A program made the position numbers and the translations under genes. From assembly GCF_001644705.1 (NCBI RefSeq), contig NZ_CP015137.1, positions 1,710,001 to 1,742,000 of the forward strand: DNA of 32,000 bases, written 5' to 3'. Source of the DNA: Dickeya solani IPO 2222 (GTDB lineage Bacteria; Pseudomonadota; Gammaproteobacteria; Enterobacterales; Enterobacteriaceae). Numbering within the stretch: position 1 is the first letter of the stretch; each line of letters begins with the position of its first letter. Below the pieces are notes generated by a model. The model worked only from the letters and a program-made list of their open reading frames with translations, had not been told where the DNA came from and did no database searches. Shown in pieces: positions 4,454 through 23,579 of the stretch.

Positions 4454-7012
4454 GTGAAGTTCGTAAAGTACCTATTCATCCTTGCAGTGAGTTGCATTCT
4501 GCTGGGAGCCGCTTCGCTCTATGGCCTCTATCGCTATATCGAGCCACAGTTACCCGATGTCGCCACGCTGAAGGACGTCCGCCTGCAGACTCCGATGCAG
4601 GTTTACAGCGCCGATGGCGAACTGATCGCCCAGTTTGGCGAAAAGCGTCGTATCCCGCTGAAGCTGGATCAGGTTCCCCCCACGATGGTGAACGCGTTTA
4701 TCGCCACGGAAGACAGTCGTTTCTTCGAACATCATGGCGTTGACCCGCAGGGGATTATCCGTGCGGCGGTGATCGCTCTGACGTCAGGCCACGCCACGCA
4801 GGGGGCGAGCACCATCACCCAGCAGCTGGCGCGAAACTTCTTTCTGAGCCCCGAGCGCACGCTGTTGCGTAAAATCAAGGAAGTGTTTCTGGCGATTCGC
4901 ATCGAGCAAACGCTGACCAAGGAAGAAATTCTTGAGCTGTACCTGAACAAGATCTACCTGGGTTACCGTGCCTATGGCGTCGGTGCGGCGGCGCAGGTCT
5001 ATTTCGGCCGCCCGGTGGACCAGTTGACGCTGGCGCAGATGGCGATGATCGCCGGTCTGCCGAAAGCGCCGTCCACCTTCAACCCGCTCTATTCCTACGA
5101 TCGCGCCGTCGCTCGCCGCAATGTGGTGTTGTCCCGCATGCTGGACGAAAACTACATTACGCAGGCGCAATACGATCAGGCCCGCAACGAAAAACTGGTG
5201 GCGGATTATCACGCGCCGGAAATCGCCTTCTCCGCACCTTATCTGGCCGAAATGGTTCGTCAGGAAATGGTGAAACGTTACGGCGAGGATGCTTATAACG
5301 ACGGTTATCAGGTCTACACCACCATCACCCGCAAGTTGCAGTTAGCGGCCGAAGACGCGGTACATAACAACGTCATCGCTTATGACATGCGCCACGGCTA
5401 CCGTGGGCCGGAGCAGGTGCTGTGGAAAGTGGGCACCCCGGCGTTGACCCAGGATAAAATTGTCGAGGCATTGAAAAAGCTGCCGGTCTACGGACCGCTG
5501 TTTCCGGCGGTGGTGACCGATGCCAGTGCGGACAAAGCCCACGCCATGATGGCCAACGGCGACAAAATCGAACTGCCGCTGGCGGGGGTGCGCTGGGCGC
5601 GCGCCTACCGTTCGGATGACCAGCAAGGCCCCACGCCGAAACGCGTGACGGACGTACTGGAAGCCGGCCAGCAAATCTGGGTGCGCAAAGTCGACAACGA
5701 CTGGTGGCTGGCGCAAGTGCCGGACGTCAACTCCTCGCTGGTGTCGCTCAATCCGAAAAACGGCGCCGTGCTGGCGCTGGTCGGGGGTTTTGACTTCAAC
5801 CAGAGCAAGTTCAACCGCGCCACGCAGGCGCTGCGTCAGGTTGGTTCGAACATCAAACCGTTCCTGTATACCGCGGCAATGGATAAAGGGCTGACACTGG
5901 CCACCATTCTCAACGACGCCCCGATTACGCGTTGGGATCCGGGCGCCGGTTCCGACTGGAGCCCGAAAAACTCGCCTCCGGTGTATGACGGTCCGATCCG
6001 TCTGCGTCAGGGACTGGGGCAGTCGAAAAACGTGGTGATGGTACGTGCGATGCGCGCCATGGGCGTAGATTACGCCGCCGATTATCTGGAGCGCTTCGGC
6101 TTCCCGGAACAGAACATCGTACATACCGAATCGTTGGCGCTGGGATCGGCGTCCTTTACGCCGCTACAGGTGGTGCGCGGTTACGCAGTGATGACCAACG
6201 GCGGTTATCTGGTCGACCCCTACTTCATCACCAAAATCGACAACGCCAGCGGCAACACCTTATTCACCGCCACCCCGAAAGTGGTGTGCGATACCTGCAA
6301 TCTGCCGGTGATTTACGGGGATACCCAACGTTCCGCTGTTTTGTCGGATGACAGCATGGAAAACGTGGCGACCTCGCAGGAAAACCCAATGCAGGCCGCC
6401 CCGCAGGCTGACCCGGCCACGCCGTCGGAAGTCGCCAGACAAGCAGCGACGCAACCTTATGCGCCGCATGTCATCAGCACGCCGCTGTCTTTCCTGATCA
6501 AAGATGCGCTGAACAGTAATGTGTTCGGCGAACCGGGCTGGATGGGAACCGGCTGGCGCGCGGGCAAAGTGCTGCAACGCCGCGATATCGGCGGTAAAAC
6601 CGGCACCACCAACAACTCAAAGGATGCCTGGTTCTCAGGTTATGGCCCCGATATCGTCGCCTCCGTGTGGATTGGTTTTGACGATCACCGCCGTGACCTT
6701 GGCCGGACATCGGCATCCGGCGTAATTCGCGACCAGATTTCCGGTTACGAAGGCGGCGCGAAGAGCGCCGAACCCGCCTGGGATGACTTCATGAAAGTGG
6801 CGCTGGCGGGCATACCGGAGCAGAAAACGCCGCCGCCGCAAGGCATCGTGACCGTAACCATCGATCGCAGCAGCGGCAAACTGTCGGATGGCGGCGCGAA
6901 CAGCCGTCAGGAATACTTCATCGATGGCACCCAGCCGACCGAACGGGCCGTGCATGACGCCGGTACCACGCTGTTCAATACCAGCAGCGGTCAGGCGGAA
7001 GAGCTGTTCTGA
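4454..7012 (+). CDS. mrcA: Penicillin-binding protein 1A (bifunctional glycosyltransferase/transpeptidase)
   Basis: The product is near-colinear with E. coli PBP1A (KFVKYLFILAVSCILLGAASLYGLYRYIEPQLPDVATLKDVRLQ..., EDSRFFEHHGVD, SNIKPF, KTGTTN). I place the start at GTG 4454 (MKFVKY...) rather than the TTG at 4430 in the track. Confidence 0.95.
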   Translation: MKFVKYLFILAVSCILLGAASLYGLYRYIEPQLPDVATLKDVRLQTPMQVYSADGELIAQFGEKRRIPLKLDQVPPTMVNAFIATEDSRFFEHHGVDPQGIIRAAVIALTSGHATQGASTITQQLARNFFLSPERTLLRKIKEVFLAIRIEQTLTKEEILELYLNKIYLGYRAYGVGAAAQVYFGRPVDQLTLAQMAMIAGLPKAPSTFNPLYSYDRAVARRNVVLSRMLDENYITQAQYDQARNEKLVADYHAPEIAFSAPYLAEMVRQEMVKRYGEDAYNDGYQVYTTITRKLQLAAEDAVHNNVIAYDMRHGYRGPEQVLWKVGTPALTQDKIVEALKKLPVYGPLFPAVVTDASADKAHAMMANGDKIELPLAGVRWARAYRSDDQQGPTPKRVTDVLEAGQQIWVRKVDNDWWLAQVPDVNSSLVSLNPKNGAVLALVGGFDFNQSKFNRATQALRQVGSNIKPFLYTAAMDKGLTLATILNDAPITRWDPGAGSDWSPKNSPPVYDGPIRLRQGLGQSKNVVMVRAMRAMGVDYAADYLERFGFPEQNIVHTESLALGSASFTPLQVVRGYAVMTNGGYLVDPYFITKIDNASGNTLFTATPKVVCDTCNLPVIYGDTQRSAVLSDDSMENVATSQENPMQAAPQADPATPSEVARQAATQPYAPHVISTPLSFLIKDALNSNVFGEPGWMGTGWRAGKVLQRRDIGGKTGTTNNSKDAWFSGYGPDIVASVWIGFDDHRRDLGRTSASGVIRDQISGYEGGAKSAEPAWDDFMKVALAGIPEQKTPPPQGIVTVTIDRSSGKLSDGGANSRQEYFIDGTQPTERAVHDAGTTLFNTSSGQAEELF

Positions 7013-7716: not shown

Positions 7717-8138
7717 CGTGGCCTCTATAAGGAAACATCAACAGACCTTCCCTGTTCAGGCCAATGTCGGCACGGAACAAAAAACCGGTAGAGCCGCAGT
7801 TTCCTACAGAATATTCAGTGAGTCACATTGTGCGTTAACATTAACAGCAGCTGCAACTCTATCATGGTGACTTTACATATTGGCAACACCGTGTACACAT
7901 TAATTTTTTTAATACAAAAATCATAGCGTGCTTATGATCGGTTGTTGATGACTTATCAGAAAAAATTCAGACTTTCCTCATTTCCGCCGCCCTCCCCGCT
8001 TGCTAACATACAGTGTTAAACAACTAATAGTCGGTTAATTCAGTCATTAACCATGCGACACGGGTTAACATTGTTCGTGTAGTTTTGTTACTATCCGGAA
8101 ATAACAGAGGGAACCTTACGCTGTTGGCTGGAGATAAT

Positions 8139-12424: not shown

Positions 12425-12437
12425 TTCCCCATTTCAG

Positions 12438-12460
12438 CGGCCCGCCTGTGGGCCGTTTCT
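12438..12460 (+). terminator. hslO intrinsic terminator
   Basis: The sequence is CGGCCCgcctgtGGGCCGtttct, 14 nt after the hslO stop. It is flanked by a direct repeat ccccatttca (12427..12436 and 12461..12470). Confidence 0.6.
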
Positions 12461-12672
12461 CCCCATTTCAAAACAGATCAAATATCAAGAAACGGCCAGT
12501 CCCTTCACCCGGTTATTTCGCTTAAACAACAACCATTTGCTTACTTCTTATTCACATGTATAAGCAAAGTTATTAATGAATTTATTTAATTTTTTGATTG
12601 TTATCGCGGTTAAAATAAGCTCACCTTCTAGACTTACTAACAGTACGACTATAACGATCTAGGAGTAGCAAC

Positions 12673-16526: not shown

Positions 16527-16796
16527 CTCTCTTCTCCAAAGACGTGATAGCCGCCAGCGCTTGGCTTTATTACGAAACACAATCTGATATTGTTCAGAAA
16601 CCGGCAATGAACTGACAGTCGTTTCTGGTATATATTCTAGGCAAAATTGTTACAAAGGATATAAAAATACGGTGTAATCAAACCGTTCCCATCACTGAGT
16701 ACTGCAAATCACGCCACAAATGACGATTTATCCGCTATGTTATCTCACAGCCAACGATTATAACGATTTTATGATACTTACATTTCAGAAAAGCGT

Positions 16797-17297
16797 ATGA
16801 AAACCGATCTGATCACGCGCGAAGGCTATGAAGCCCTGCATCAGGAACTTAACTATCTGTGGAAGGAACGCCGTCCGGAAATCACGGAGAAGGTGGCCTG
16901 GGCCGCCAGCCTGGGCGATCGCAGCGAAAACGCCGATTATATCTACAACAAACGCCTGCTACGTGAAATTGACCGCCGGGTGCGGTATCTGCGTAAACGC
17001 CTGCAGGTGGTGCGAGTGGTGGATTACTCTCCCCAGCAAGACGGCAAGGTGTTTTTCGGTGCCTGGGTTGAAGTGGAAAACGAAGACGGCGACGTGAAAC
17101 ACTTTCGTATCGTCGGGCCGGATGAAATTTACGGCCGCAAGGATTACATCTCGATTGACGCCCCGATGGCGCGAGCGCTGCTAAAAAAAGCAGTGGATGA
17201 AGAAGCGGTGGTCAATACGCCAACCGGCCCAAAGGTCTGGTACATCAATAAAATCGACTATCGCAACCCTATCGGCTATCGCAACCCTATCGACTGA
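16797..17297 (+). CDS. greB: Transcript cleavage factor GreB, with a repeat-encoded C-terminal tail
   Basis: The product contains REGYE.L.QELNYLW.E.RPE...KV.WAASLGDRSENADY.YNK and GKVFFGAWVE, as in E. coli GreB (158 aa). Here it is 166 aa and ends ...IDYRNPIGYRNPID. Confidence 0.9.
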   Translation: MKTDLITREGYEALHQELNYLWKERRPEITEKVAWAASLGDRSENADYIYNKRLLREIDRRVRYLRKRLQVVRVVDYSPQQDGKVFFGAWVEVENEDGDVKHFRIVGPDEIYGRKDYISIDAPMARALLKKAVDEEAVVNTPTGPKVWYINKIDYRNPIGYRNPID

Positions 17298-17547: not shown

Positions 17548-19257
17548 ATGTTTAGCCTGGATAACCTATTACAAGAACTTGCTCCACATCGTTCCACGCC
17601 GACCTGGCAGCGTTCATTGCTGCGTAGCTTGTTATTCGAGAATGAATTCCAGCAATTCGCCCAGCGTTACCCTCATCTCAAAGGACTGGACTTGGTGGAA
17701 CAGGTTCTGGATCACTTCAGCCTTAACTGTGAAATGGTGGAAGGCGATCTGGAAAACATTCCCAGCCGGGGGCCGGTGGTGCTGGTCGCCAACCATCCGA
17801 TCGGTTCGCTGGATGGACTGGCGCTACTGCGCACCGTCGCCAGCGTGCGTCCGGATGTGCGTGTCGTCGCCAGCCAGCTGCTTTCTCGTATTGAACCCCT
17901 GAAAAACCTGTTTTTTTCGGTGGATAATTTCAGCAATCGAACCCGACGCCACCAGCTCGCCGCCATTCAGGAACATCTGGCCGGCGATGGCGCGATCATC
18001 ATGTTCCCCGCCGGCGAAGTCTCCCGCATGAGCCTGAAAGGCATCCGGGACGGCCACTGGCATAGCGGTTTTATCCGCATGGCGGCCAAGGCGCGCGCAC
18101 CGATTGTGCCGATTCACATCAGCGGACGTAACAGCAGCCTGTTCTACCTGTCGTCGCTGATCTATCGCCCGCTGTCCACCCTGTTGCTGGTGCGGGAAAT
18201 GTTCCGTCAACACGGCAACCGGCTGCGTTTTCGCATCGGCGCGCAGATCCCCTACCCGACCTGGAGTCAGGGCGAGTGGCAACCCAACGATCTGGCCGCC
18301 CGTTTTCGCCGCCATGTCTACCGTTTAGGCCAAGGCAAACCCGGTTGTTTTAACGGCGACAAGCCGATTGCGTTGCCGGAAGAGCGCACGTTACTGAAAC
18401 GGGCATTGGAAACATGCGAAGCACTCGGTACCACACCGGACGGCAAGAAAATTTATCTCTATCGCCGTGGCAGCGAAGATTATGTTCCTATCTTGCGTGA
18501 ACTGGGGCGCCTGCGGGAAATCGCGTTTCGCGCCGTCGGCGAAGGCTCCGGCAAACGCCGCGACCTCGACAGCTTCGACGACGATTACCTGCATCTGGTG
18601 CTATGGGACGACCGCGAACTGGAAATCGTCGGCGCCTATCGGTTTGCGCCGACGGCGCGCCTGCTGGCGGAAAAAGACATCAGCGGTCTGTACAGCCATA
18701 GTCTGTTTCAGTACGGCGAAGAGATGGCCCCGGTGCTGGCCAGCGGAATCGAGCTGGGCCGCAGCTTTATCCAGCCCAAATACTGGGGAAAACGTGGCCT
18801 GGACTACCTGTGGCTGGGCATCGGCGCCTATCTGGCGCGTTATCCGGAATACCGCTATCTGTTCGGCCCGGTATCCTTGTCCGGCTCATTGCCCTCACCG
18901 GCGCGGGACTTGCTGATTGCCTTCTACCGGCTGCACTTCGCGCCCAGTCAGGCGCTGGCCCATTCACGTCGCCCTTACCCGGCCTCGCTGCCGGAAGTAC
19001 TGAGACAATTCGAAGGCGACGACTATCAACAGGATTTGACGCGCCTCAAAAGTATGCTCAGCAACATGGGATGCTCCATTCCTACGCTGTATAAACAGTA
19101 CTCGGAGCTGTGTGAACCGGGTGGCGTGCAGTTTATCGACTTCGGCGTCGATCCGGACTTCAACAACTGCGTCGATGGTCTGGTGCTGGTGGATTTACAG
19201 CAACTGAAAGCCTCTCGTCATCAGCGCTACATCGCGCCGTTCTGCAACGAGGCATAG
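17548..19257 (+). CDS. Two-domain acyltransferase: N-terminal PlsC/LPLAT-like O-acyltransferase fused to a C-terminal OlsB-like GNAT N-acyltransferase (OlsF-like, candidate ornithine or other amino-lipid synthase)
   Basis: The 569-aa ORF has a GGAGGG Shine-Dalgarno 7 nt upstream. The N-terminal half has LPLAT-type motifs VLVANHPIGSLDG (NHx..D) and IIMFPAGEVSR (FPxGE). The C-terminal half has the hemolysin-like/OlsB pattern LRELGRLREIAFRAVGEGSG..RDLDSFDDDYLHLVLWD....EIVGAYRF. There is no counterpart at this position in E. coli. Confidence 0.6.
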   Translation: MFSLDNLLQELAPHRSTPTWQRSLLRSLLFENEFQQFAQRYPHLKGLDLVEQVLDHFSLNCEMVEGDLENIPSRGPVVLVANHPIGSLDGLALLRTVASVRPDVRVVASQLLSRIEPLKNLFFSVDNFSNRTRRHQLAAIQEHLAGDGAIIMFPAGEVSRMSLKGIRDGHWHSGFIRMAAKARAPIVPIHISGRNSSLFYLSSLIYRPLSTLLLVREMFRQHGNRLRFRIGAQIPYPTWSQGEWQPNDLAARFRRHVYRLGQGKPGCFNGDKPIALPEERTLLKRALETCEALGTTPDGKKIYLYRRGSEDYVPILRELGRLREIAFRAVGEGSGKRRDLDSFDDDYLHLVLWDDRELEIVGAYRFAPTARLLAEKDISGLYSHSLFQYGEEMAPVLASGIELGRSFIQPKYWGKRGLDYLWLGIGAYLARYPEYRYLFGPVSLSGSLPSPARDLLIAFYRLHFAPSQALAHSRRPYPASLPEVLRQFEGDDYQQDLTRLKSMLSNMGCSIPTLYKQYSELCEPGGVQFIDFGVDPDFNNCVDGLVLVDLQQLKASRHQRYIAPFCNEA

Positions 19258-19432: not shown

Positions 19433-21781
19433 ATGAAGAACGCATTAAGCCAGATTATTGCCAGCGAACTGCAGGCGCGTACCGAACAGGTCAGTGCGGC
19501 CATTCAACTGCTGGATGAAGGCAACACGGTTCCTTTTATCGCCCGTTACCGTAAAGAAGTCACCGGCGGGCTGGATGATACCCAACTGCGTCAGCTGGAA
19601 ACCCGCTTGTCTTACCTGCGCGAGCTGGAAGAGCGCCGCCAGACCATCCTCAAATCGATTGAGGAACAGGGCAAGCTGACCGACGCGCTGGCGACGTCGA
19701 TTAACACCACCCTCAGCAAGACCGAGCTGGAAGACCTCTACCTGCCTTACAAACCCAAACGCCGTACGCGCGGGCAAATCGCCATCGAAGCCGGTCTGGA
19801 GCCGCTGGCGGACAGCCTGTGGAACGACCCAAGCCAGACGCCGGAACACGTAGCCGACGGCTACGTCAATGCCGATAACGGCGTGGCCGACGTCAAAGCC
19901 GCGCTGGACGGCGCACGCTATATTCTGATGGAGCGTTTCGCCGAAGATGCCGCGCTGCTGGCCAAAGTGCGTGACTACCTGTGGAAAAACGCCCATCTGG
20001 TGTCCCGCGTGGTGGAAGGCAAAGAGGAAGACGGCGCGAAATTCCGCGACTACTTCGACCATCACGAACCGCTGTCGCAGGTGCCGTCGCACCGGGCGCT
20101 GGCGATGTTCCGCGGCCGTAACGAAGGCGTATTGCAACTCTCGCTTAACGCCGATCCGCAGTTTGACGAACCGCCGAAAGAGAGCCACGGCGAGCACATC
20201 ATCATCGGCCATCTGGAACTGCGTCTCGGCAACGCGCCGGCGGACGGCTGGCGGCGCGCAGTGGTGAACTGGACCTGGCGCATCAAGGTGCTGCTGCATC
20301 TGGAAACCGAGCTGATGGGCAGCGTGCGTGAAAAAGCCGAAGACGAAGCCATCAACGTGTTTGCGCGTAACATGCACGACCTGCTGATGGCGGCGCCCGC
20401 CGGCATGCGCGCCACCATGGGGCTGGACCCAGGCCTGCGCACCGGAGTGAAAGTGGCGGTGGTGGACGCCACCGGCAAACTGGTGGCGACCGATACTATT
20501 TATCCGCACACCGGTCAGGCCGCCAAAGCGGCCACCGTGGTCGCGGCGCTGTGCATCAAGCATCAGGTGGAGCTGGTCGCCATCGGCAACGGCACCGCAT
20601 CCCGCGAAACCGAGCGTTTCTTCCTTGATACCCAGAAACAGTTCCCGGACGTGAAAGCGCAGAAAGTCATCGTCAGCGAAGCGGGCGCGTCGGTGTATTC
20701 CGCTTCCGAACTGGCGGCGCTGGAATTCCCAAATCTGGACGTGTCACTGCGCGGTGCGGTGTCCATCGCCCGCCGCTTACAGGATCCGCTGTCCGAACTG
20801 GTCAAGATCGACCCGAAGTCCATCGGCGTCGGCCAATACCAGCATGACGTCAGCCAAACCCTACTGGCGAAAAAACTGGATGCGGTGGTGGAAGACTGCG
20901 TGAACGGCGTCGGCGTCGACCTCAATACCGCCTCGGTGCCGCTGCTGACCCGCGTAGCCGGCCTCACCCGGTTGATGGCGCAGAACATCGTGAGCTGGCG
21001 TGACGAAAACGGGCGCTTCAACAACCGCGACCAACTGCTGAAAGTCAGCCGCCTCGGCCCGAAAGCCTTTGAGCAGTGCGCCGGCTTCCTGCGCATCAAC
21101 CATGGCGACAACCCGCTCGATGCCTCCACCGTCCACCCGGAAGCCTACCCGGTGGTGGAACGCATTCTGGCCGCCACCGAACAGAAACTGCAGGACCTGA
21201 TGGGCAATTCCAGCGCGCTGCGCACCCTAAAACCGGCCAGCTTTACCGACGAGCGTTTCGGGGTGCCTACCATCACCGACATCATCAAAGAGCTGGAAAA
21301 ACCGGGGCGCGACCCGCGGCCGGAATTCAAGACCGCCAGCTTTGCCGACGGGGTGGAAACCCTCAACGACCTGCTGCCGGGCATGATTCTGGAAGGCGCC
21401 GTCACCAACGTCACCAACTTCGGCGCGTTCGTGGATATCGGCGTACATCAGGACGGGCTGGTGCACATCTCCTCACTGTCGGATCGCTTCGTGGAAGACC
21501 CGCATCAGGTGGTGAAAGCCGGCGACATCGTCAAGGTGAAAGTGCTGGAAGTGGACCTACAGCGTAAGCGCATCGCGCTGACCATGCGGCTGGACGAACA
21601 ACCGGGCGAGGGCAATAGCCGTCGCGGCAGCGGCGGTGGTGGACGCGAGCGCGACAACGGCAATAATGCGTCGCGCCCATCACAAGCAGGAAACAAGGCT
21701 CGTCCGCGCCAAAGCAGCACGTCGGCAGGCGGCAACAGCGCCATGAGCGACGCGCTGGCAGCGGCGTTTAAAAAGCGGTAA
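19433..21781 (+). CDS. tex: Tex/YhgF transcription-accessory protein (S1 domain RNA-binding)
   Basis: The 782-aa product begins with an N-terminal Tex HTH region ([26 protein letters not shown]). It also has a YqgF-like region ([17 protein letters not shown]), HhH motifs, and a C-terminal S1 domain ([26 protein letters not shown]). Confidence 0.93.
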
Positions 21782-21840
21782 GACACGTTCGTTTCCCCCT
21801 AAAAAGCTCTTCGGTAAATGTGAGAGAAACTCCATAAGAT

Positions 21841-21868
21841 AAAACCGCTGAATCATCAGCGGTTTTAT
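21841..21868. terminator. Bidirectional intrinsic terminator between convergent tex and the orphan gene
   Basis: The sequence is aaaaCCGCTGAatcaTCAGCGGtttta. It has a 7-bp stem and a 4-nt loop, flanked by A and T runs. Confidence 0.75.
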
Positions 21869-21885
21869 CAATTTTCAGCGAGATA

Positions 21886-22368
21886 TCACAACTGACCTAA
21901 CGCTGCGCATACAGCACGAATCTGGGTTCTTGTTGATGAATATAGATTGGCAATAACGCCATTCCCACCATAGGTTTGCTGTGCTGGATGCCTTGCTTTC
22001 CAGACACGTGCAATATGCCCTTGTACCCCTGAGAAACAACACATGAATAATACTCTTGCCGTATTATTAACACCAATATTTTCGAGCAGGCCTATCGTGT
22101 TATTCATGGTAATAGTTTGCCCCTGATTATTAGCAAGAACTGTGTTGTTATCTCCACCATGTGCAAATACGATTACATAATCTCCATTGGCACAGTTATA
22201 AACTGTATTTCTATAGACAATGTCGATTTGATTTATCTGCGTGCCAATATTTTCTCCCACGTTGTGGTTGGCAATACTATTAAAAAAATTCCGCATATCT
22301 GTCGCACCTCTATCGAGATCGCAGTTCACATCAGCAGTAAATGGGATAACAATGACAAGATTAGGCAT
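21886..22368 (-). CDS. Orphan hypothetical protein (160 aa) in an AT-rich islet; possible minimal clan CD-like cysteine peptidase (hypothesis only)
   Basis: ATG 22368 is preceded by AAGGAG with a 7-nt spacer. The track start at 22425 is an upstream extension with no Shine-Dalgarno. The protein is Asn/Ile-rich with AT-rich codon usage unlike its neighbours, and has no signal peptide or TM segment. Its hydrophobic strand-like segments are LVIVIPF, DYVIVFAHGG and ARVLFMCCFSG. Confidence 0.6.
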   Translation of the reverse strand: MPNLVIVIPFTADVNCDLDRGATDMRNFFNSIANHNVGENIGTQINQIDIVYRNTVYNCANGDYVIVFAHGGDNNTVLANNQGQTITMNNTIGLLENIGVNNTARVLFMCCFSGVQGHIARVWKARHPAQQTYGGNGVIANLYSSTRTQIRAVCAALGQL

Positions 22369-22626
22369 AGCATAACTCCTTATCAAGGATTTTATTGTCA
22401 TTAAGTATAGATATATACCCTTCACCGATTAAGTGGTGAGTATATTAGTCTTACTATAACTCACATTATTTACGTCATATACTGATTAGATTCATTTAAA
22501 AAATACCACTATAAAAGAAAGTATTAATCGGAAAAATCGGGTTATATTATTGACGTTTGTTGATTATTAGCAGGCATGAATGAATCAATACATTCATTTT
22601 CAATAATAAAGCAAGGAATTCAGACT

Positions 22627-22686
22627 CAATAATAAAACGCAGGAGAAAGCTCCCGGCGGGACGCCTCATCATTGCGATCGTCCCGC
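22627..22686 (-). terminator. Compound hairpin plus U-tract, a likely bioH terminator
   Basis: The minus-strand RNA reads GCGGGACG-(15 nt)-CGUCCCGC, then GGGAG-CUUU-CUCCU, then GCGUUUUAUUAUU. It lies about 120 nt downstream of the bioH stop, at the edge of the AT-rich islet. Confidence 0.4.
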
Positions 22687-22784
22687 TTACGCTGGTGCTT
22701 AACTGACAAACATTAATTACCTTGATGGGATAGGTTCTTTTTGTATAAGCCGGTCAGGCCGCCTCCTTACAACCAGACTATCAA

Positions 22785-22797
22785 CCCCCCCCCCCCC
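22785..22797. repeat. Homopolymeric C13 tract (G13 on the bioH strand)
   Basis: 13 consecutive C residues were counted directly, 8 nt downstream of the bioH stop codon. Confidence 0.95.
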
Positions 22798-22805
22798 TCC
22801 CTGTC

Positions 22806-23579
22806 TCATACACGCGCTTTCACAAACCCCACCACATGTTCCACAAACGCGTCCGGATGGGAAATAAACGGCGCGTGGGCGGCTTTCGGTATCACCACGG
22901 AGGTGGAGTGTGGGAACTGTTCGTCCATCAGTGCGGCGACTTTGCGCGGCACCAGCCCGTCCAATGCGCCGTACACGCGCAGGAACGGCATCGTCAGCGT
23001 ACTCAGCGGTTCACGCAGGTCGGTATCGCGCAACATCCCCAGCCCAGCGTTCAGCACCTCGGAGGTGGGCGCCGGTTGGCCGAACAACGCCACCTTCAGC
23101 GTGCGGGCGTCTTTTCTGGCGTTTTCGGTACCCAGCGTCTGCAACGCCAAAAAGCGCTCAATGGTGCCGAGGAAATCGTCGCTCAACATTTGCTGAAAAC
23201 CGGATAGCACCTGCGGGCGGATGCCCGGCCAGTCGCCACGCGCTTCAAAGCACGGGGACGACGCCAGCGTGATCAGCGCATTGACCCGTTCCGGCGCGCT
23301 CAGCGCCGCCTGACTGGCCACCAGCCCGCCCAGCGACCAGCCCAACCACACTGCGCGCTCCGGCGCCTGCGCCAGCACCTGCTGCGCCATATCGGCAAGC
23401 GACATCACCCCGAATCCCTGACTCTGACCATAACCCGGCAGATCCACCCGGTGCAGCCTGAAATGCGGGGCCAGTCGCATGACGATGCTGTTCCACACCT
23501 GCGAATTCATTCCCCAGCCATGCAGCATCACAAGTTCGCATGTTCCTTCCCCTTCCGTTTGCCAGTGCAGTGATCCCAT
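22806..23579 (-). CDS. bioH: Pimeloyl-ACP methyl ester esterase BioH (alpha/beta hydrolase)
   Basis: The 257-aa product is colinear with E. coli BioH ([10 protein letters not shown], nucleophile elbow GWSLGG, ...[10 protein letters not shown]). Confidence 0.9.

Follow-up and report, generated by a model that had tools for sequence, protein, structure and literature searches.

Between tex and bioH of Dickeya solani IPO 2222 lies a single orphan gene (21886..22368, minus strand) that encodes 160 amino acids followed by a stop codon, and in this paper we looked at what its product may be. All positions refer to the window, which is the whole 32-kb stretch of DNA that was analyzed. Based on the conserved residues of its family and on its structural model, the orphan protein may represent a minimal, free-standing family of cysteine hydrolases (peptidase or amidase) that follow the plan of clan CD, the clan of caspases and legumain; we give this proposal about an even chance. 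We would describe the protein as a sequence orphan of a clan-CD-like kind, a candidate for the clan rather than an established member.

Conserved residues and predicted structure

The family alignment contains 50 sequences with a mean column identity of 18%. Gly71 is the only invariant residue (50/50) and its neighbor H70 is kept in 49 of the 50 sequences, followed by C111 and H118 (48 each) and S113 (47). P9, F10 and D63 are also found in 48 sequences and F108 in 47, and lower values are seen for G134 (44), W123 (41), T146 (39) and R147 (37). An earlier reading of the DNA, made from the sequence only, had drawn attention to His70 (VIVFAHGG) and to Cys110/Cys111 (RVLFMCCFSG), and these residues are located as it described. 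Across the homologues H70 and C111 are indeed kept, but position 110 is variable and can be C, V, I, A, L, N, F or M, so that only C111 counts as a candidate nucleophile. S113 and H118, which are absent from that earlier reading, equal the dyad in conservation. Natural exceptions to the dyad exist: the His is replaced by Tyr in one member (P0069) and the Cys by Ser or Gly in two others (P0072 and P0035).

The orphan model structure was predicted with AlphaFold. With an alignment of 18 sequences the predicted local distance difference test (pLDDT) was 82, and with the 50-sequence alignment it reached 97.9, with a predicted template modeling score (pTM) of 0.92. The model begins with a strand (residues 4-8), a helix (17-31) and two further strands (36-39 and 48-52), which are followed by strand 64-68 and then by H70-G71. 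Two short strands (77-79 and 85-87) and helix 88-97 lead to strand 105-109, directly ahead of C111-F-S113; the chain continues with helix 119-126, which has H118 at its start, and strand 131-134, and closes with a C-terminal hairpin (143-145 and 150-153) that carries T146-R147. According to the model the orphan is a single-domain α/β protein, and because the chain starts with the first core strand, the protein is predicted to be cytoplasmic. As for the traits of a type III effector, no Hrp box (GGAACY-N15-16-CCACNNA) was found in the window, and residues 4-8 form this first core strand at a pLDDT of 98 and not a disordered signal.

In the gene, on the minus strand, the codons of His70-Gly71, proposed to supply the general base and the glycine of the oxyanion hole, are located at 22156..22161, two residues after the predicted strand 64-68. 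Those of Cys111-Phe-Ser113-Gly-Val-Gln-Gly-His118, which include the proposed nucleophile Cys111, are at 22015..22038, between the predicted strand 105-109 and helix 119-126. Residues 142-147, encoded at 21926..21943, include the conserved Thr146-Arg147 of the C-terminal β-hairpin, a candidate substrate-binding element.

Likeness to clan CD

Clan CD enzymes have a hydrophobic block before the His-Gly and a second hydrophobic block before the Cys, and in the orphan these are found as YVIVFA-HG and RVLFM-x-C. The order of the dyad, His and then Cys, is also that of the clan: as far as sequence and predicted secondary structure show, H70 comes after strand 64-68 and C111 after strand 105-109. It was described that clan CD proteins have a β-sheet of order 2-1-3-4-5-6, with strand 6 antiparallel and helices flanking the sheet, of which strands 2-1-3-4 and helices α1-α3 form the minimal core; the His/Cys dyad is at the C-terminal ends of β3 and β4, and a small β section is found between β3 and α3 (PMC4357240). 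Such a section follows the His loop of the orphan model as well, in the form of the short strands 77-79 and 85-87 ahead of helix 88-97. The spacing from His to Cys is 42 residues in caspase-7, 46 in PmC11 and 49 in MARTX-CPD (PMC4357240); in the orphan it is 41, which equals that of human legumain (H148/C189), and an ungapped overlay of the two sequences aligns both H-G and C-x-S-G. Weak Pfam hints, each in one of the 50 members, are to Peptidase_C13 (E 0.024) and CHAT (E 0.17).

The models were also compared with known folds by Foldseek. For the weaker model the PDB list starts with NrdI, followed by legumain, C11, PIGK, caspase-2/3, CED-3 and MARTX-CPD. For the confident model the top match is SAVED-CHAT (8tl0; E 9e-3, probability 0.98, TM 0.44), and about 36 of the top 50 PDB matches belong to clan CD (caspase-2/3/8/11, legumain, PIGK, C11 and the TcdA/TcdB/MARTX CPDs), the rest being mostly NrdI or azoreductase, both flavodoxin-like. 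Against BFVD, the first places are taken by clostripain and by caspase-domain proteins from giant viruses. The caspase fold, in its first five strands, and the flavodoxin-like fold both have the strand order 2-1-3-4-5, and the two groups of matches are therefore not contradictory.

Several results weigh against a place in clan CD. Although the clan dominates the three Foldseek lists, none of the matches is significant (no match with E < 1e-3 or TM ≥ 0.5; best E 9e-3, TM 0.3-0.48), and NrdI and flavodoxin-like proteins score as well, with probabilities of up to 0.93. Strands 48-52 and 64-68 of the model are not joined by a helix, which means that α2 of the minimal caspase/haemoglobinase core (PMC4357240) is missing. 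Neither the protein nor its 50 family members gave a significant Pfam or NCBIfam match to any clan CD family, and a profile search of the PDB gave 0 matches at E ≤ 10; PDB searches with the protein itself and with a second profile of the family likewise gave no match of any meaning. The comparison of profile against profile covered C13 (legumain) only, by using a human legumain sequence that is 100% identical to P0085 and its 120 homologues, all from vertebrates and with an effective number of sequences (Neff) of 1.3; in this comparison hhalign gave a probability below 1% and an alignment that is out of register, both for legumain alone and with the 120 homologues, and the legumain hidden Markov model (HMM) scored the family members no better than shuffled sequences. 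In addition, S113, H118 and D63, which are conserved to the same degree, could equally well belong to a site for a metal or a ligand. The sequence-only reading had raised the possibility of a stand-alone clan-CD-like protease or effector with the dyad topology of the clan. Of this proposal, the motif and the placement of the dyad find support, with the His and the Cys each after one of two consecutive core strands in the model; no sequence or profile similarity was found that links the protein to a clan CD family.

If the orphan is a cysteine hydrolase of the clan CD plan, His70, on the loop after core strand 3, would be the general base and Cys111, on the loop after core strand 4, the nucleophile, whilst the oxyanion hole would consist of Gly71, which is invariant, and the main chain at Cys111. 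Ser113 and His118 may shape the same pocket. In caspase-7, Arg233 is located on a short strand of the L5 loop after β5 and binds the P1 residue (PMC4357240); in a similar manner Thr146-Arg147 of the C-terminal hairpin may line the S1 substrate site, as the caspase L5 arginine does. These catalytic roles are inferred, as are the kind of substrate and the part that the protein plays in the cell; what the data show is a real gene under selection, with conserved residues, a confident fold model, mobility and no conserved partner.

The orphan gene and its selection

The orphan gene is the sole convincing open reading frame (ORF) in the spacer between tex and bioH, and its product is identical to the protein annotated as 'MULTISPECIES hypothetical protein [Dickeya]'. 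A Shine-Dalgarno sequence, AAGGAG (22376..22381, minus strand), is found 7 nt upstream of the ATG at 22368-22366; it is invariant across D. solani, a closely related genome (L012) and D. zeae, in which the start codon is kept too. All 17 close homologues begin at the same M-P-N-L, and for this reason ATG 22368 is taken as the start and a longer reading from a GTG (179 aa) was rejected.

The gene is real and under purifying selection. Between D. solani and D. zeae 51 substitutions were counted (30.5 synonymous, Sd; 20.5 non-synonymous, Nd), which results in a dN/dS of 0.16; in the same comparison bioH has 0.18 and gntX 0.11. The closer genome L012 differs by 6 synonymous changes and 0 non-synonymous ones. 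This agrees with the single real gene, with its AAGGAG and ATG 22368, that had been proposed from the sequence. The foreign-looking codon usage that was noted at the same time was also confirmed: the ORF has a GC content of 0.41 and a GC content at third codon positions (GC3) of 0.34, as against a GC3 of 0.73-0.77 in tex, bioH, gntX and nfuA. A homologue in high-GC hosts has a GC3 of 0.87, the same as those genomes, to which it has ameliorated, and the AT-richness therefore belongs to the Dickeya copy and not to the family.

The protein family, its hosts and its mobility

A word-indexed search of 5.8 billion clusters resulted in 18 homologues and an exhaustive HMM search of 1.84 billion representatives in 60, of which 52 have E < 1e-10. 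Nearly all of the members stand alone, mostly with a length of about 160-175 aa (range 154-180 aa), and their hosts are Gammaproteobacteria, Actinomycetota and Bacteroidota. Two motif patterns based on the closer alignment were run against 185,579 species genomes and matched only a Solirubrobacterales metagenome-assembled genome (MAG) and Taibaiella koreensis; no copy was found in viral contigs by the motif patterns, or in phage genomes and plasmids by tblastn.

It had been suggested from the sequence that the protein fits no named family, and this holds, since it has no match in Pfam, NCBIfam, PHROG, PADLOC or the PDB sequences. When the 50 family members were compared with Pfam, NCBIfam and PADLOC only scattered sub-threshold matches appeared, and in PADLOC-DB 2.0 there were only chance-level matches and no conserved defence operon. 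One NCBIfam model, NF052258 'SGM_3592 family' (93 positions), was considered and set aside as uninformative: it matches one divergent member only (P0031, residues 116-156, 41 aa), with 23.5 bits where the cutoff is 70. The name 'SGM_3592 family' was not found in any paper, and no description of the family turned up in the literature, whether the search was by accession number or by topic.

In Dickeya, the genome CP051457.1 (locus L011) is identical to the window over the region compared. D. solani, L012 (with flanks that are about 94-96% identical) and D. zeae all carry the orphan at this place between bioH and tex, and D. zeae, D. oryzae and D. dadantii have variants with at least 90% identity. 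A spacer of just 148 bp separates the two genes in D. lacustris, and one of 78 bp in Dickeya sp. CFBP 2040, neither of them alignable, and in Pectobacterium atrosepticum bioH has another neighbor. The tex-bioH interval is thus a replaced or variable locus, as the sequence-only reading had it, with the gene present in some Dickeya and a spacer of 78-148 bp in others. The best explanation is that the gene was acquired horizontally by the ancestor of the D. solani/D. zeae group and was then inherited at this site.

The gene neighborhoods of the homologues were compared and no conserved neighbor was found; the small ORFs that precede the gene in two metagenomic contigs show no relation to one another and no Pfam match. 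Some copies are near integrases, transposases, Shedu, RHS, restriction-modification or NERD genes. For example, in metagenome contig k127_4144260 (L002, 1570-13320) the homologue is found among genes for a MACPF-domain protein, a GT4 glycosyltransferase, an IS256-type transposase, Shedu SduA_C and a large RHS/YD-repeat toxin, a setting that is conflict or defence-island-like. In the Solirubrobacterales MAG (OY969118.1; L001, 6667-10053) the homologue lies in a 1227-bp segment between two 100%-identical inverted copies of a 1080-bp insertion sequence (IS), each of which encodes a 325-aa rve transposase and has its own 31-bp terminal inverted repeats. This unit is composite-transposon-like, and the homologue is its only convincing cargo ORF. 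The gene is mobile and has no conserved partner.

Because it is fixed in several Dickeya species and is carried by a transposon, the orphan should be useful on its own, and its carriage in an actinobacterial genome together with its AT-rich islet in Dickeya plant pathogens suggest a self-sufficient, selectable function. The gene would act without a dedicated partner and would move between phyla as single-gene cargo. A bolder form of our proposal, which we regard as possible but more doubtful than not, is that the orphan is the smallest-known free-standing member of the caspase/legumain clan, a single chain of about 160 aa without prodomain, sensor or partner that spreads across phyla as the only cargo gene and is enough by itself to confer a selectable trait. 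If this is true, the trait could be, for instance, a toxin, a defence by proteolysis that needs one gene only, or an enzyme dedicated to some processing step, and the family would be a new MEROPS family and a minimal catalytic unit of the caspase fold.

Alternative explanations

The main rival explanation of the fold and the conserved residues is that the orphan is a flavodoxin-like (NrdI-like) protein that is not a hydrolase, in which the conserved loops after strands 1, 3 and 4 bind a metal, a cofactor or a small ligand and which serves as a redox, sensor or carrier protein. NrdI is among the best Foldseek matches (target-normalized TM 0.41-0.56), the conserved residues are on exactly the three loops that bind flavin mononucleotide (FMN) in flavodoxins, and a His/Cys/His(/Asp) set is typical of zinc or iron ligands; the five parallel-type strand-helix units of the model and the missing caspase α2 can be read in the same way. 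Yet, the loop after strand 1 is I-P-F-x-x-D and not the Ser/Thr-rich phosphate loop that we would expect of a flavodoxin, none of the 50 members has a flavodoxin or NrdI match in Pfam, the C-terminus is a β-hairpin in place of the terminal helix of flavodoxin-like folds, and a Gly that follows the His without any exception is characteristic of proteases. Clan CD matches also outnumber the flavodoxin-like ones by about 3:1, though flavodoxin-like folds are far commoner in the PDB. Taken together we consider this explanation unlikely, but it deserves weight; if it is correct, the orphan is simply another uncharacterized accessory gene.

Another hypothesis, to which we give a small probability, is that the protein is a catalytically inert scaffold, namely an immunity, anti-defence or regulatory binding protein whose conserved residues maintain the structure or make up a surface for binding. 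The small size, the lack of a partner gene, the sporadic distribution and the position of some copies beside Shedu SduA_C, RHS, restriction-modification or NERD genes would fit such a function, as would the rare natural variants His to Tyr (P0069) and Cys to Ser/Gly (P0072, P0035). The residues that are nearly invariant, however, are a His, a Gly, a Cys, a Ser and a second His, placed where core strands end on the C-terminal side, and because this is the usual active-site edge of α/β folds they suggest chemistry rather than surface binding. The absence of phage copies in our searches and of PADLOC or PHROG matches also speaks against a scaffold of this kind.

It is very improbable that the orphan is a minimal α/β-hydrolase-like esterase or thioesterase with H-G as its oxyanion-hole motif and Ser113, in C-x-S-G, as its nucleophile. 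A strand followed by 'hhhhHGG', with small-x-Ser-x about 40 residues further on, does recall lipase and esterase motifs, and a few α/β-hydrolase matches of low probability appear in BFVD (ranks 12, 15 and 36). But no conserved acid and then His is found downstream of the Ser, as H118 is only 5 residues after S113; the helix begins at 119 and not straight after the nucleophile, so that there is no nucleophile elbow; and there is no α/β hydrolase in the PDB top 50 and no Abhydrolase match in Pfam, while the neighboring BioH has several.

Finally, a decaying remnant or a spurious ORF in AT-rich spacer DNA has next to no probability and is effectively refuted by the selection analysis, for although the base composition is foreign, no sigma-70 consensus promoter was found in the scan of the 5' region and the orphan is without known function, this reading is opposed by the dN/dS of 0.16 and the 6 synonymous against 0 non-synonymous changes between genomes, by full-length homologues in three phyla with host-adapted codon usage, by the kept start and Shine-Dalgarno site and by a pLDDT-98 model that points to a well-folded domain.

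The islet between tex and bioH

The flanking genes are convergent: tex (19433-21781, plus strand) encodes Tex, with Pfam matches from Tex_N to S1, and bioH (22806-23579, minus strand) encodes BioH, with several Abhydrolase matches in Pfam. The spacer between them (21782..22805, no strand assigned) is 1024 bp long, exceeds every other stretch of the window in AT content and is a lineage-specific islet, given the 78 bp and 148 bp in other Dickeya. In 300-bp windows its GC content at about 21,800-22,700 is 0.31-0.42, which includes the five lowest values of the 32 kb, and outside the islet the mean is 0.581 with a standard deviation of 0.054 and a minimum of 0.377. The AT-rich islet of the sequence-only reading is thus a measurable feature, and its statement that the tex-bioH interval of E. 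coli holds feoABC-rpnA(yhgA) is also correct. Around 21,700-22,900 no integrase or transposase, terminal repeats or target-site duplication were found. Other stretches with a low GC content (0.38-0.40) are located at about 7,720-8,080, 12,430-12,670 and 16,610-16,800; all of them are intergenic and much smaller than the islet.

On the tex side, a perfect 14-bp inverted repeat with a 4-nt loop (21838..21869) forms a two-way intrinsic terminator that is common to the convergent tex and orphan gene. Its folding energy is -21.6 kcal/mol on the plus strand and -23.1 kcal/mol on the minus strand, with a z-score of about -7 on both, and 0 of 200 shuffled sequences fold equally well; a shared bidirectional terminator at this place had been predicted from the sequence and the strong fold on both strands bears it out. 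On the bioH side, a terminator-like double hairpin with a T-run (22640..22686, minus strand), 3' of bioH, marks the edge of the AT-rich DNA. It is weaker than the terminator of tex and the orphan gene (z -1.6) and is kept in D. zeae.

The AT-rich 5' region of the orphan gene (22369..22639, minus strand) reaches from this hairpin to the start codon. It had been noticed from the sequence as AT-rich DNA between the orphan start and the putative bioH terminator, and it measures 271 bp with a GC content of 0.28; much of it is kept between D. solani and D. zeae. A sigma-70 scan of this region gave no site that matches at least 9 of 12 positions, and an Rfam scan of it found no family.

Three side observations concern the surroundings. 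In D. zeae (L026/L027, about 4460-4660) there are about 180 extra GC-rich bases, absent in D. solani, between bioH and the conserved terminator-like hairpin, and these may be a small repeat or an insertion element. A homopolymer of 13 C (22785-22797; poly-G in the 3' region of bioH) is found 8 nt downstream of the bioH stop codon, where two other D. solani-like genomes have only 7 C; this points either to a tract of variable length or to a site that is prone to sequencing errors. On the other side of tex, between greB and tex, 17548-19257 encodes a 569-aa two-domain acyltransferase (Pfam Acyltransf_2/Acyltransferase and Acetyltransf_5). This slot is empty in E. coli and holds a sulfatase in Dickeya sp. 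CFBP 2040, which makes the position next to tex another variable slot.

Comparison with known systems

NrdI and the flavodoxin-like proteins share with the orphan a similar size, a three-layer α/β/α architecture and comparable Foldseek scores. They differ from it in that the orphan has no FMN-binding motifs, has a C-terminal hairpin in place of the last helix and is found in no ribonucleotide-reductase context, whereas NrdI lacks the conserved His-Gly/Cys set.

Legumain and GPI transamidase (MEROPS C13, PF01650) have the same order of His and then Cys, the same strand followed by H-G and strand followed by C-x-S-G, and the same spacing of 41. Legumain also shares a short strand with an N-rich turn between the His and the next helix, and gives many weak Foldseek matches. 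However, its catalytic domain is about 260 aa as against the 160 aa of the orphan, which has no signal peptide or prodomain, no detectable profile similarity and no helix between strands 2 and 3, and in which Asn42 and the S1 residues of legumain have no evident counterpart.

Among the caspases and CHAT proteins (C14 and relatives) is the best Foldseek match, SAVED-CHAT 8tl0, and here too the dyad is on the loops after β3 and β4 and a small β section follows the His loop; the position of the orphan R147, on the hairpin after strand 5, may be compared with that of caspase-7 Arg233 on L5. In contrast, the TM of this match is only 0.44, and the orphan has no QACxG motif, inter-subunit linker or processing site and no Pfam C14 match, with a weak, sub-threshold CHAT match in 1 of the 50 members (E 0.17). 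Bacterial CHAT and caspase-like proteases are normally fused to, or encoded with, their sensors and substrates, and the orphan stands alone. Should it turn out to be an active enzyme of clan CD, it would be the caspase catalytic unit in its most reduced natural form, without α2, prodomain, linker or regulatory domains, and would be useful for understanding the minimum requirements of caspase-type catalysis and how such an enzyme is safe in the cytoplasm without a sensor or partner.

The toxin CPDs (C80) are, to our knowledge, the smallest known clan CD domains, with about 200-250 aa. They occur as internal domains within giant toxins, and inositol hexakisphosphate (InsP6) activates them through a large basic pocket, whereas the orphan is free-standing and near-neutral (isoelectric point 6.9, one Lys), and the dyad spacing is 49 in MARTX-CPD as compared with 41 in the orphan. 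The highest query-normalized TM in the searches, 0.48, belongs to a structure of this group (MARTX-CPD, TcdA/TcdB), 3eeb, and the C-terminal β-hairpin of the orphan may be likened to the CPD β-flap.

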